Part shown: piece by piece, positions 7,618-20,067 of the stretch | How positions within the stretch are numbered: the first letter of the stretch is position 1 | Layout: the number at the start of each line of letters is the position of its first letter | IMG/VR virus record: IMGVR_UViG_3300027740_000003 | Location: 32,001 to 96,000 of that record | DNA length: 64,000 nucleotides | Reading direction: 5' to 3' (one strand) | Source of the DNA: a virus | Taxonomy: Duplodnaviria > Caudoviricetes | Program-made: the position numbers and the translations under genes | The notes under the pieces: generated by a model | What the model was told of the DNA's origin: nothing | The model's input: only the letters and a program-made list of their open reading frames with translations | Database searches by the model: none

Positions 7618-7800
7618 TTATTTATTCTCCGTATATTCGTAATATCCTACAACATTGCAACAGTCTTCAATGAATTCATATGCATTTTCGATAACACTAT
7701 CTGTTTGTGCTATCTTTTCAGAGCAATTAATTTGCTCTTGTTGAATAAAGTTCTCGACAACATTCCACAGATCAGTTAGTTGTTTCTCGGTTGGTTTCAT
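7618..7800 (-). CDS. hypothetical protein
   Basis: 60-aa ORF tiling with neighbours. Confidence 0.65.
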   Translation of the reverse strand: MKPTEKQLTDLWNVVENFIQQEQINCSEKIAQTDSVIENAYEFIEDCCNVVGYYEYTENK

Positions 7801-8312
7801 TCTATTATGTCTTTAATTGTTTTTTCGTCATATGTTAGAACATAATTATCTTTACAAACTAGATTAAATAAATCACCAACTGCCGCTGGTCCAACAAATT
7901 TATTTGTAATATTAGGATGAAGTAAAATTTCAGAATAATTTTCTTCTATTTCTGAATCTGAAACTGAATAATAATAACTTCTTCTTATTTTTATAAAAAT
8001 ACTAAGTTCGCCATAACTCGAAATAAACAGCCCAATGTTTTTTATTTTTGCAGCATCAAAACTTGTTTTAAGTTTGCCATAACTACAAAATAAATTTACA
8101 TTAAAATTAATAGTTATAAAATAATGTTCGGTACCAGACAAATCATAACCAACAGTAAATTCTTTTGTATATTTTTTCAATTCTGGAACAAATAACTTAA
8201 CAGTTTGTTTTATTAATTCTAATCTGTACCTATCAGCTTCAATACATTTATATAATCCATTTTCATCTAATAAATTGTTTTTATTATCATTTAACGTTTT
8301 ATGTAATTTCAT
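7797..8312 (-). CDS. hypothetical protein with C-terminal KDIIE tail
   Basis: Ends VLTYDEKTIKDIIE. Confidence 0.75.
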   Translation of the reverse strand: MKLHKTLNDNKNNLLDENGLYKCIEADRYRLELIKQTVKLFVPELKKYTKEFTVGYDLSGTEHYFITINFNVNLFCSYGKLKTSFDAAKIKNIGLFISSYGELSIFIKIRRSYYYSVSDSEIEENYSEILLHPNITNKFVGPAAVGDLFNLVCKDNYVLTYDEKTIKDIIE

Positions 8313-8315
8313 TGT

Positions 8316-8654
8316 TCATCCAAATGTGAATCCGAAAGATTCTTCTAAACCCTCTGGTGTTTTATCTAATTTTCTACACTGACCGAAATGACCATCTTCC
8401 ATATAAGCTTTCCAATACGAAATCACTTCATCTAAAGTTCCAGCGCCTTGATAGCACTTTTCAATAACGGCATAATTCCAACGACATTCAAATGGATCTC
8501 CGTGATAATAATGTTCTCTAATCTTCTTCCCCGCATCGTTTAAATACTTTTCGGCATCTTCTAATTTGAAGAACCAAATCTTCTTTCCCCATTCAGAAAT
8601 GCAATTATCTTTTATATTGAAAGAAGTTATAACAAATATAAAATCATTCGTCAT
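8316..8654 (-). CDS. hypothetical protein
   Basis: Tiling minus-strand ORF. Confidence 0.7.
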   Translation of the reverse strand: MTNDFIFVITSFNIKDNCISEWGKKIWFFKLEDAEKYLNDAGKKIREHYYHGDPFECRWNYAVIEKCYQGAGTLDEVISYWKAYMEDGHFGQCRKLDKTPEGLEESFGFTFG

Positions 8655-9085
8655 TTGATGATACCGTTTTCAACAACAAGGGCTATCAATTCGTCTCTGG
8701 ATAATTCTGAAGCTTTGGAATAGGTTTTCTCTTTCTCAGTGGGTTTTACTTTTTTAGCAAAGGGGAAATAATATTCTTCTCCGGAAGCAATTGCGTTTTT
8801 GGTAATTGTTCTATAACAGATCTTTCTTTCCAATACTTTTGCCGCTTCATCTAGTATTGTAAGTCTGGCTCCTTTTAAATGATGTCCGTCTTTTATAAGA
8901 TATTTTATTAGATTTCTTAAATTATCATCTGACCAATCGTCAAAACTTTCTTTAATTGCATCCTCTGCTAAGCCATATAGAGAGACTATATAATTTGCCG
9001 TATATTCGAAATCATCCTCAGGAGATGTTTTCAAAGCCTCTAGCTTGTTTCTTTGCAAGAATTGTTCTACGTCATCAAAGTTCAT
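8651..9085 (-). CDS. hypothetical protein
   Basis: Tiling minus-strand ORF with 4-bp overlaps. Confidence 0.7.
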   Translation of the reverse strand: MNFDDVEQFLQRNKLEALKTSPEDDFEYTANYIVSLYGLAEDAIKESFDDWSDDNLRNLIKYLIKDGHHLKGARLTILDEAAKVLERKICYRTITKNAIASGEEYYFPFAKKVKPTEKEKTYSKASELSRDELIALVVENGIIK

Positions 9086-9366
9086 ATCAACTCATCAATC
9101 TTATCTGAACTTGCTTCAAGTTCTTTTTCTACAACAATGAACGCTTCTGTTTCAGAAATAAGTTTTGCAAGACGACAGTCGGGTTTATGATTTTCATCAT
9201 AATCAGGACTATGATCTCCAAACGTATAAAAACATGTTGGGCAGCACTCTATATATTCAGGATGACAATGACAGGCGGTATTTTTTCTACCAGAATATTG
9301 TGCAAACTCTTTTACAAAATATAAAAGATCTTCAAGAATATCTATGTTTGTCCTAACGTTGTCCAT
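9082..9366 (-). CDS. hypothetical protein (Cys/His-rich, possible zinc binding)
   Basis: CHCH...CCPTC...H...HKPDC. Confidence 0.7.
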   Translation of the reverse strand: MDNVRTNIDILEDLLYFVKEFAQYSGRKNTACHCHPEYIECCPTCFYTFGDHSPDYDENHKPDCRLAKLISETEAFIVVEKELEASSDKIDELI

Positions 9367-9368
9367 GT

Positions 9369-18289: not shown

Positions 18290-18552
18290 TAGAACGAGTT
18301 TCCATCTGGGCGAAGCATTCTTTCTGGCATGTTTTTGTTATTACATTTTAACCAAGCCTCGATTAATTTTGCATGTTTACAATAATTAGAGCACCTACAT
18401 CCTGGACTATCACAGGACCATTTCTTTTTAGACCGGTGGATAATATAAATTGCTACAGGCTCCTTGTCAAGGTCCCATTTTGATACTTCAAAAGTATCCC
18501 AACGAAGTTCACGAATCAGGTAGCCTACTTCCATTTGGTTCCTATTATTCAA
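18289..18552 (-). CDS. SWIM zinc-finger protein
   Basis: WSCDSPGC....YCKH motif. Confidence 0.65.
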   Translation of the reverse strand: MNNRNQMEVGYLIRELRWDTFEVSKWDLDKEPVAIYIIHRSKKKWSCDSPGCRCSNYCKHAKLIEAWLKCNNKNMPERMLRPDGNSF

Positions 18553-19063
18553 TAATATCTTTTATAGCCAATTCATCTTCTGATAAGGCTCTAGAGCCGG
18601 CAGGAAACACATATTCTGTTATTCTTTTTATTTTTGGGTTATAGATTTTAATAGAAACTAATTTCTTTTCGGAAATTAATTCCCTGATTATTTTTAAAAA
18701 ATAAGAACATGCATCTTCTTCACCCGGATATTGTTCAAAATCATTTATGTATTCCCCTTGATCAACAATTTCAACAAGCGGGAGTTCAGCATTTGTCATA
18801 AATTTTTGGATAATATTTTTATTCCGTTTATATACATTTTTCACATAATTTTCATTTATGTCAATCCAGAATTTAGGTGTAGTTTTAAACGCCTTTGCTA
18901 AACCTTTTGCGATATTTTCATTTATACAAATTTCATCATAATACAAGTTATACAACTCTTCCGCTGATATACCAGATAATTTTGAAATTTCTTCATCGGA
19001 AAAATTTAAATCTGTCTTTTTTTCACCGAGAACTTCTCCTGGAGATTTTATCTTTCTGTTCAT
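18545..19063 (-). CDS. HigA-like (XRE/Cro) HTH protein with C-terminal KDIIE tail
   Basis: SPGEVL, ELYNLYYDEICINENIAKGLAKAFKTTPKFWIDINENY; ends LSEDELAIKDIIE. Confidence 0.8.
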   Translation of the reverse strand: MNRKIKSPGEVLGEKKTDLNFSDEEISKLSGISAEELYNLYYDEICINENIAKGLAKAFKTTPKFWIDINENYVKNVYKRNKNIIQKFMTNAELPLVEIVDQGEYINDFEQYPGEEDACSYFLKIIRELISEKKLVSIKIYNPKIKRITEYVFPAGSRALSEDELAIKDIIE

Positions 19064-19094
19064 ATTATTTATCCATACTTTGTTGTGAAAACAA

Positions 19095-19427
19095 TTATGT
19101 TATGATGTCTTTTATCATTAATTCGTCTGGAGATAATTTTCTTAAGTTAGGCAATAGGTTGTTTATAAAATCTGACAAACGCCAATCTCCCTTGTCTTCA
19201 TAAATAACCAATATACTGTTCTGCTTTCTGTTCCGCTTTTTTCTAAAGAATTCCATATAAAATTTAGTAGATTCTAGCCACTTAAAAAAATCAAATTTTA
19301 TTAAATTAAATTTTATTGATATCATTTCATTTTGATGAAAATCAATGCCTAAATTTTTTAAACAACAATCATTAAGAACAACATATTCACCCTCAGATAT
19401 AAAACACTCTAGAATTACTCTGTCCAT
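19095..19427 (-). CDS. Paralog family member 3 (conserved ends, variable centre)
   Basis: ILECFISEGEYVVLNDC ... DFINNLLPNLRKLSPDELMIKDIIT. Confidence 0.8.
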   Translation of the reverse strand: MDRVILECFISEGEYVVLNDCCLKNLGIDFHQNEMISIKFNLIKFDFFKWLESTKFYMEFFRKKRNRKQNSILVIYEDKGDWRLSDFINNLLPNLRKLSPDELMIKDIIT

Positions 19428-19450
19428 ACTACGCCTTAAATTTAATTATA

Positions 19451-19786
19451 TTAAGTAATAATGTCTTTTATCATTAGTTCGTCTGGAGTTAGTTTTTTAA
19501 GATTGGGAAGAAGGTTGTTTATAAACGCATCTAAAGTAGGCAAACCATTGATATATTTAGTATTTTCCCAAATAGCAAGATTAAATCTTGCGCCACAAAT
19601 GATTAAAACAAAACTATGTAAAATCATTTTAGGATTGGGGTTTAAAACAATTTTTTCTTCACGAAATTTAACTTGTACCAATTCGTCTTTATTAAACGGA
19701 TAATAGCAACTACAATCATTCAGGACAACATATTCTCCTTCCGATATAAAACACTCTAGAAATATTTTGTCGTTAGGAAATCTCAT
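19451..19786 (-). CDS. Paralog family member 2
   Basis: FLECFISEGEYVVLNDC ... AFINNLLPNLKKLTPDELMIKDIIT. Confidence 0.8.
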   Translation of the reverse strand: MRFPNDKIFLECFISEGEYVVLNDCSCYYPFNKDELVQVKFREEKIVLNPNPKMILHSFVLIICGARFNLAIWENTKYINGLPTLDAFINNLLPNLKKLTPDELMIKDIIT

Positions 19787-20067
19787 GTTATGATGTCTTT
19801 TATCATTAATTCATCTGGAGATAATTTTCTTAAGTTAGGCAATATGTCGTTTATAAAATCTATTAAATGCCGAGTATCAAAATCATAATTAATACAAAAC
19901 CCAGTATATCCATAATCTCTATTTTTTGAGATGATTAAATAGTTTTCATCAATTTTAACTTGTACCAATTCGTTTTCATAAAACGGAAAATAACAATAAC
20001 AATTATTCAGGACAACATATTCTCCGTCCAATATAAAACACTCTAGAATTATTTGTTGGTTATTCAT
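19783..20067 (-). CDS. Paralog family member 1
   Basis: ILECFILDGEYVVLNNC ... DFINDILPNLRKLSPDELMIKDIIT. Confidence 0.8.
   Translation of the reverse strand: MNNQQIILECFILDGEYVVLNNCYCYFPFYENELVQVKIDENYLIISKNRDYGYTGFCINYDFDTRHLIDFINDILPNLRKLSPDELMIKDIIT

Follow-up and report, generated by a model that had tools for sequence, protein, structure and literature searches.

A portable C-terminal peptide on about one-seventh of the genes of a huge phage is a candidate docking tag

Introduction

Why would small proteins of unrelated build end in the same few residues? The question is raised by a window of 64,000 nucleotides (positions 32,001 to 96,000 of the virus record IMGVR_UViG_3300027740_000003; window coordinates below count from its first letter), in which a preliminary description had noticed one C-terminal peptide on six proteins with different bodies. 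Short portable address peptides are known, among them the T4 capsid targeting sequence (CTS), the ssrA tag, and the encapsulation peptides of microcompartments. To our knowledge, no address peptide has been found on a seventh of a viral proteome. Here, we followed this peptide, hereafter the acidic tail, through the whole genome of the phage (G000) and its relatives. We found it at the ends of about 100 genes, and on balance we think it is probably a portable docking tag that is recognized by one common partner.

Results

The acidic tail is confined to gene ends

Phage G000 is an uncultured virus represented by a single-contig record of 435,004 bp (35% G+C), on which a simple greedy call placed 728 genes at 95% coverage. 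A gene was scored as a carrier if its product ended in [IVLMA]-[KR]-D-[IL]-I-x (the strict pattern) or in a slightly wider, general pattern. Between 99 (strict) and 109 (general) of the 728 genes carried the tail, corresponding to 14-15% of the gene set. Genome-wide, the core [KR]-D-[IL]-I-[EQTL] was observed 98 times at a gene end where 0.017 occurrences were expected, thus excluding chance as the source of the tail; inside genes, the same core was observed 6 times versus 3.3 expected. The string IKDIIE was terminal in 69 cases and internal in none, placing the signal, as for ssrA, at the free C-terminus. Carriers were small, with a median length of 97 amino acids compared to 136 for the other genes.

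The last 13 residues follow the consensus L-[TS]-x-D-E-[LM]-[MI]-I-K-D-I-I-E, then stop; written as a single form with a free carboxylate, the G000 tail peptide is LTEDELMIKDIIE. Among the last six positions, -1 was the least fixed (E 89, Q 9, L 5, T 4, and K 2 in the 109 carriers), and position -4 of the same 109 was D in 99, N in nine, G in one, and never E. In a close relative, the carrier with a DUF7448 domain (see below) terminates in ...AKDII-stop, suggesting that the final residue is dispensable.

A tail-only profile, run as an underpowered search against 1.8 billion proteins, returned eight significant matches, all at the C-terminus. A literature search on the tail peptide strings found no paper describing such a tag, the matches being internal and irrelevant, and a megablast search with 20 kb of the window against a phage collection gave no match. 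The preliminary description had proposed a pattern search across the genome and related phages; this search yielded the ~100 carriers in G000 and located the tail in related phages too. The six carriers first described are real, but that description missed both the scale (~100) and the restriction of the tail to one lineage.

The six window carriers have four kinds of body

All six window carriers are open reading frames on the minus strand, with the C-terminal tails originally reported and the common end L-[ST]-x-x-E-x-x-[IA]-K-D-I-I-[ET]-stop:

7797..8312, minus strand: carrier 1, an orphan of 171 amino acids, ending ...LTYDEKTIKDIIE
15369..15779, minus strand: carrier 2, 136 amino acids, a DUF7448 beta-domain plus the tail helix, ending ...LSEAEKIAKDIIE
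18545..19063, minus strand: carrier 3, 172 amino acids, a HigA/VapI-like helix-turn-helix (HTH) protein, ending ...LSEDELAIKDIIE
19095..19427, minus strand: carrier 4, a paralog of the trio, 110 amino acids, ending ...LSPDELMIKDIIT
19451..19786, minus strand: carrier 5, a paralog of the trio, 111 amino acids, ending ...LTPDELMIKDIIT
19783..20067, minus strand: carrier 6, a paralog of the trio, 94 amino acids, ending ...LSPDELMIKDIIT

Carrier 1 matched no Pfam family and formed a singleton body group, and no homolog was found for it in three of the relatives described below (G001, G006, and G007); its stop codon and the start codon of the following gene overlap (ATGA, window 7797-7800). Carrier 2 matched DUF7448 (PF24240) with an E-value of 7e-25 over residues 10-118 of 136. 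In carrier 3, an HTH domain (residues ~4-90) is followed by an extra region of ~70 residues and then the tail. By sequence, residues 4-90 matched PDB chains (E-values 3e-4 to 6e-3), and the protein matched phrog_1381, "plasmid antitoxin with HTH domain" (E-value 1e-10). Carrier 3 has a single tagged paralog, at genome position 126558; a word-based homolog search returned only carrier 3 itself, and its single-sequence structure model was poor (predicted local distance difference test [pLDDT] 41). Carriers 4-6, which all end ...L[ST]PDELMIKDIIT, form one BLAST group in which ~45 residues at the N-terminus and ~25 at the C-terminus are kept and the middle is hypervariable; two orthologs on a related contig have the same layout. 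The stop codon of carrier 6 overlaps the ATG of carrier 5 (ATGA, window 19783-19786). The initial naming of a HigA-like HTH protein, a DUF7448-like protein, and a paralog trio is upheld by these Pfam, PDB, and phrog matches and by the BLAST grouping.

The tail is portable between unrelated bodies

After trimming the last 14 residues, we obtained 65 BLAST groups from the bodies of the 99 strict carriers; 55 groups were singletons, and the window carriers occupied four. The multi-member groups included a 14-member DUF4116 group and groups of seven, five, and five, in addition to the window trio. In Pfam searches, 11 carriers had DUF4116 repeats and one had DUF7448; the only other matches, a few in number, were to HEAT/Arm, and enzymes were absent. 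Body types range from the all-beta DUF7448 and the helical HTH to alpha-repeat proteins and Cys-rich, zinc-ribbon-like proteins.

The DUF7448 carrier illustrates that the tail is an addition to its domain. We detected 940 homologs of DUF7448 and inspected the best 120 for a tail; a tail was present on just two, the query and a relative 71% identical to it, and the other 118 stop directly after the domain. In an AlphaFold2 model of carrier 2 (pLDDT 90.6), strands extend to residue 123 and a confident helix spans residues 126-135. Structural matches covered residues 2-123 only, never the terminal helix; an immunity protein for a polymorphic toxin was the best match, a weak one (Z = 5.9), and a Foldseek search of the model against the PDB found nothing significant.

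Could the carriers simply be an expanded paralog family in which the C-terminus happens to be the best-conserved part? Some of them are true paralogs (the 14-member group, the groups of seven, five, and five, and the window trio), and a bias toward ATA codons in the tail (see below) suggests that tail DNA has spread by descent and recombination. Nevertheless, 55 of the 65 groups are singletons, the bodies have distinct folds, and DUF7448, a widespread domain, is tail-less among its best 120 homologs except here and in the closest relative. We consider ordinary paralogy highly improbable. The preliminary description had proposed that the tail does not depend on the domain, had suggested checking whether homologs elsewhere lack it, and had named full-length homology among all carriers as a result that would refute it; the body groups, the 118 tail-less DUF7448 homologs, and the singletons of distinct fold all side with its proposal.

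The tail is predicted to form an amphipathic helix

The hydrophobic moment of the tail was higher when calculated as a helix (1.07) than as a strand (0.46), and its net charge is about -4. Judging from the residue pattern, L(-13) and [LM](-8) would form a hydrophobic staple and [ST](-12) and E(-9) an N-capping box, with [MI](-7), I(-6), I(-3), and I(-2) making up a single hydrophobic face that has K(-5) and D(-4) at its flanks. We infer a three-turn amphipathic helix suited to a groove. The putative staple, capping box, and hydrophobic face, together with the free end, the terminal position, and how little the tail varies between unrelated bodies, suggest a docking helix with one partner.

A tail of this kind might instead have no external reader and serve self- or mutual binding (oligomerization or a condensate), or act as a generic stabilizing cap. 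Self-association is a common trait of short amphipathic helices, the helix was confidently predicted without alignment support, and a broad search turned up no reader (see below). However, a three-turn helix with a net charge of about -4 is a poor self-associating unit, and its strict need for the chain end, with no internal IKDIIE, is unexpected for a bundling helix. Moreover, I-K-D-I-I is near-invariant over dozens of unrelated bodies and in two phages at 44% median identity, which argues for a single constant binding site and against generic packing. On this evidence, a reader-less helix seems to us quite unlikely.

Selection acts on the peptide, with a nucleotide overlay

In the last six codons of the carriers, codon positions 1 and 2 had near-zero entropy, whereas position 3 had 0.9-1.5 bits except in the last codon. 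Tail lysines are encoded by AAA (47) or AAG (45), isoleucines by ATA, ATT, or ATC, and aspartate by GAT or GAC; GAA is the last codon in 76 of the 81 carriers with a terminal E. Since positions 1 and 2 are fixed, position 3 is free, and residue -4 is never E, selection is on the amino acids. The codon-position entropy led us to reject a DNA-level motif.

The tail also lies at gene junctions. An ATGA overlap with the next gene was found in 51 of 99 carriers versus 79 of 629 other genes, and among small genes 59% of the tagged were coupled (ATGA or a 1-nt overlap) compared to 12% of the untagged. When K(-5) is encoded by AAG, it forms with the following GAT a Shine-Dalgarno-like AAGGAT, 9 nt ahead of the overlapping ATG; AAG was used in 36 of 62 coupled versus nine of 37 uncoupled carriers (p = 0.0016). 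The conservation of the peptide was nonetheless equal, IKDIIE being present on 26 of the 37 uncoupled and 43 of the 62 coupled carriers. Stop codons (TAA, TGA, and TAG) were used by uncoupled carriers as by untagged genes, so no particular release factor is implied, and on this ground we rejected a link between the tail and a release factor or stop codon.

These data bear on whether the tail is an element of the gene junction, that is, a 3' end that serves translation of the next gene (a ribosome-binding site and an ATGA re-start) or a nascent-peptide or termination signal that involves the phage release factor. The excess of coupling in small tagged genes, the enrichment of AAG in coupled carriers, and the dominance of GAA as last codon speak for such an element, as does a release factor whose net charge flips with tail type across lineages. 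But the 37 uncoupled genes keep the tail equally well, their stop-codon usage is normal, the amino acids are fixed while third codon positions are free, and conservation extends over 13 residues with a helix-capping logic. A junction element as the explanation of the tail is therefore very unlikely in our view; we read the coupling and ribosome-binding-site feature as a real, secondary nucleotide overlay on a peptide tag.

Codon choice in the tail has a further peculiarity: ATA makes up 57% of the codons for its three isoleucines versus 37% genome-wide (p = 1e-11). Separately, the window encodes a phage TilS and tRNA-Ile2(CAU) module (5777-6594), which is present in G001 and not in G005, G006, or G007 and thus tracks the acidic-tail lineage.

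One sublineage carries the acidic tail, and a relative has a different one

The capsid protein of G000 is of the phage-G type (phrog_2522) and has 368 relatives in IMG/VR. The sister phage G001 (459 kb), with a capsid protein 83% identical, has at least 86 carriers, whose consensus is looser: [IL]-[TS]-C-x-E-x-I-I-[KR]-[ED]-I-I-[EKT]. The two phages have 235 of the 728 G000 genes in common, at a median identity of 44%. In contrast, a search at E < 1e-5 matched only five of the 109 carriers to a homolog in G001, and in all ten carrier homolog pairs found at E < 1e-4 a tail is kept. Carrier bodies turn over while the tail persists across related phages. Cysteine occupies position -11 in 55 of the 86 G001 carriers and in a subset of the G000 carriers.

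We also observed the tail on contigs L289, L291, L293, and L297, and at least four related phages besides G000 have it; L289 and L293 come from one soil sample, and L293 is syntenic with this window. Eighteen other capsid relatives, which include the complete genomes G005 and G006 and the 91% complete G007 (390-450 kb each), gave zero or one tail match each. The acidic tail is restricted to one sublineage.

The proteins of G005 (IMGVR_UViG_3300009545_000018, loci L266-L288; 448 kb, 763 genes) end differently. About 80 of the 763 genes carry a basic tail, [KR]-x-x-K-L-K-[AS]-F-[LIWT]-stop, with a median length of 96 amino acids and 57 body groups. Its KLKAF-type core was observed 53 times at gene ends versus 0.1 expected and 20 times internally versus 18.8 expected. 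It is a basic tail whose amphipathic form is a strand, not a helix, and no body homology was found between acidic-tail and KLKAF-tail carriers. Elsewhere, G006 has ~10 KLKAF-type tails and G007 none, and neither has a strongly recurrent C-terminus. A minor third C-terminus was also seen, ...[LV]VCA in G000 (five genes) and ...LICA in G001 (seven genes).

Because a different tag sits on a similar set of small proteins in G005, C-terminal tagging looks like a habit of the clade, with tags specific to lineages. It is possible, and we put it forward tentatively, that the huge phages of this clade possess codes of C-terminal tags that span the proteome, each code being specific to a lineage and read by its own machine.

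Genome position and lineage pattern fit poorly with capsid cargo

The tail could be a capsid-targeting signal for ejection cargo, by which small proteins would be loaded into the prohead and injected with the DNA, closely following the logic of the T4 CTS. Products of T4-type prohead proteases have the form [LI]-x-E, which the I-I-E end of the tail matches, and the virions of giant phages contain many protein species. In addition, the carriers are small and are not enzymes, and the body of the DUF7448 carrier has a weak resemblance to a toxin-immunity protein. The tail is also like the T4 CTS (found on IPI-III and Alt; PMC3012670) in being a short conserved peptide, amphipathic and ending in [IL]-x-E, that is the only feature common to diverse, small, fast-evolving phage proteins. 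There the likeness ends: the T4 sequence is N-terminal, ~10 residues long, removed by the prohead protease, and present on a handful of proteins, whereas the tail is C-terminal, ~13 residues long, directly before the stop, and present on ~100 proteins.

The positions of the carriers are also hard to square with cargo. Except for one at 219.9 kb, on its edge, no carriers lie in the structural module (~220-340 kb); they lie instead in translationally coupled arrays amid replication and accessory genes. Relatives whose capsid proteins are 76-83% identical carry the acidic tail, the basic tail, or none, which is difficult to reconcile with docking onto conserved head parts, and cargo would imply that 14% of the genes encode virion contents. 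Prohead proteases of the T4 and HK97 types, sought as families S77 and S78, gave no match, which is uninformative since the S77 control was silent too. We therefore regard capsid cargo as unlikely.

ClpP and a MoxR/VWA pair are leads for the partner

If a common partner reads the tail, where might it be encoded? Among the families searched in G000, ClpP is the sole known reader of C-terminal peptides that the phage encodes (genome 410663-411280; E-value 6e-54). It is present in the four tag-bearing genomes and not in the tag-free G007.

The largest tagged array gave a second lead:

416088-423008 of the genome (L142:88-7008): a co-directional run of 17 genes that holds g697 and g688

The remaining 15 genes each terminate in the tail or in a near variant of it. 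The product of g697 is MoxR-like, matching AAA_5/AAA with a Walker A motif, and that of g688 is a DUF2201 protein (DUF2201_N match) with an HExxH site and a VWA domain whose MIDAS (metal-ion-dependent adhesion site; DxSxS) is intact. Carriers also flank the orthologs of both genes in G001. As a paralog, this pair is particular to G000 and G001 and differs from the MoxR/VWA pair that G005 and G006 carry; G001 has two such pairs, G000 has one and a 120-amino-acid remnant (g727), and G007 has none. The g688 family comprises 40 proteins, and an IMG/VR scan for it returned G001 only. The MoxR/VWA pair lies amid tagged genes in G000, G001, L289, L291, and L297 (one tail). A complex prediction with the g688 family alignment, Zn, Mg, and the DUF7448 carrier scored 0.00, which weighs neither way.

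We also screened for proteins whose charge flips between tail types. The release factor, an ADP-ribosylglycohydrolase, and the VWA protein emerged from this screen, which is weak because other genes show similar flips. The RF1-type short release factor (genome 343013-343588, L138:7013-7588) has a net charge of ~+10 in the acidic-tail phages and ~-10 in G005/G006, as does the ADP-ribosylglycohydrolase (genome 176658-177683, L130:658-1683).

Several results weigh against a common partner or against these two leads. Despite a broad search, no reader protein was identified in G000. A gene-content profile (shared by the two acidic-tail genomes, absent from three genomes without the acidic tail) left 54 untagged candidates, mostly ordinary enzymes and small unknowns, with no obvious reader among the ~30 that are annotated. 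These ~30 are rIIA/rIIB, IF3, UDG, PNK, RNA ligases, CoaBC, an amidase, phosphatases, radical SAM enzymes, an ART-like protein, a macro-like protein, and small unknowns. PDZ_2, Peptidase_S41, zf-C4_ClpX, AAA_2, Lon_C, TPR_8, SecB, and Pup_ligase gave no match in G000, so that the encoded ClpP is accompanied by neither an AAA_2 unfoldase nor a ClpX zinc domain or Lon. ClpP also occurs where the acidic tail is unseen: G006 has it, with only ~10 tails, of the KLKAF type. Known ClpX/ClpA degrons are unstructured and non-polar or basic (LAA, RRKKAI), whereas the tail is acidic and predicted to be a capped helix ending in D-I-I-E. Finally, six of 11 g688-family loci (L290, L292, L296, L298, L299, and L300) have no tagged gene within +/-10 kb, from which it follows that the MoxR/VWA module is older and wider than the tag; its linkage to tagged genes may reflect only a variable region of the genome. 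ClpP and the MoxR/VWA pair are thus only leads for the partner.

Neighboring features of the window

The preliminary description had also noted a weak echo of the tail upstream of the trio:

20441..21169, minus strand: a protein of 242 amino acids with the tail-like stretch ...LDPEKEKTINEILKSKANI
21198..21225, minus strand: a sigma-70-like site, TTGACA-16-TAGATT, in the gap upstream of 20441-21169

The stretch is present, but it lies six residues short of the end, has no I-K-D-I-I core, and fits no tag pattern; being internal and coreless, it does not make the protein a carrier. This gene opens the co-directional run that contains carriers 3-6, and the site ahead of it is a possible early promoter for that run. 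Promoter-like sites number 89 versus 71 +/- 7.5 in shuffles of this AT-rich DNA, a marginal excess that lends weak support.

Just downstream of the HTH carrier, window 18289-18552 encodes an 87-amino-acid protein with a SWIM-like C-x-C...C-x-H motif, which has 43% identity to its counterpart in G001 and is not conserved in G005, G006, or G007. Two radical SAM enzymes (window 10890-11771 and 51404-52270) show only generic MoxA/viperin/SPASM-like similarity; the latter has 51% identity in G001 and is absent from G005, G006, and G007. An ABC-importer/PspA-like block (window 426-5277) has 37-75% protein identity to G007 and is absent from the closer G001 and from G006, suggesting transfer between distant members of the clade. 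ARAGORN reported a tRNA-like gene at window 47260-47333 with an undetermined two-base anticodon, "ta."

Discussion

How, then, is the recurrence of one peptide on unrelated proteins best explained? The reading we favor is that of a self-contained docking helix which would act as an address tag on more than 100 small, fast-evolving accessory proteins and would be recognized by a common partner at the free end of the chain. The sorting or docking function that the preliminary description had put forward, whether for packaging, a compartment, a protease, or a hub, is likewise putative. As to what follows docking, a rather doubtful extension is that the tag tethers its carriers to an ATP-dependent remodeling or proteolytic machine and so imposes one common fate. 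One candidate machine would be the phage ClpP with a host unfoldase, and another would be the MoxR-type ATPase with the VWA/metallopeptidase partner encoded within the largest tagged array; by either, the whole carrier set might be cleared or remodeled together.

Other systems with short C-terminal signals offer partial parallels. The signals recognized by ClpX (the ssrA tag, the MuA tail, and the C-terminal peptide with which the adaptor SspB binds ClpX; PMC5415555) are, like the tail, portable and at the extreme C-terminus, and they deliver unrelated proteins to one AAA+ machine (PMC5415555 and references therein); in G000, a host unfoldase could serve the phage ClpP. Ligands of PDZ domains and tail-specific proteases are a further comparison, for which a host protein could be the reader, G000 having no PDZ_2 or Peptidase_S41 match. 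In MoxR/VWA systems, a client peptide is caught by vWA domains on behalf of MoxR (PMC7159879), and CbbQO takes hold of the C-terminus of Rubisco and of an acidic residue through the MIDAS (PMC5437159). Like CbbQ-CbbO (PMC5437159) and the vWA-MoxR conflict systems (PMC7159879), G000 combines an ATPase with a VWA protein whose MIDAS is intact, both encoded here within tagged arrays. However, the pairs known so far have a single client or a few, whereas the tag of G000 is on ~100 proteins, and its binding by the pair is putative.

New here are the evidence that the tail is an add-on to DUF7448, its lineage restriction, the second tag type, the ribosome-binding-site overlay, the negative result on stop codons, and the evaluation of ClpP and the MoxR/VWA pair. 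Variable bodies that share one C-terminal module plugging into a single machine are familiar from the ankyrin/PRANC (F-box-like) families of poxviruses and from the Dot/Icm effectors of Legionella. PRANC is a folded domain and Dot/Icm signals are loose, whereas the tail is a nearly invariant peptide of 13 residues in a phage of bacteria. If lineage-specific tagging codes do exist, fast-evolving accessory proteins would be marked as one class and their fate controlled jointly (by timed destruction, remodeling, or delivery), and in viruses of prokaryotes the codes would correspond to modular adaptors in the style of F-box/PRANC or to the secretion signals of effectors.

The tail could also be used as a compact 13-residue tag in biotechnology after its partner has been identified. 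If one partner reads it, ~100 "dark-matter" genes of a huge phage would become a single functional class, approachable by one handle, that is, one peptide and one tag. The distinct tag in a sister phage suggests that this may be a general way in which huge phages organize their accessory proteins, and it offers natural swap comparisons.

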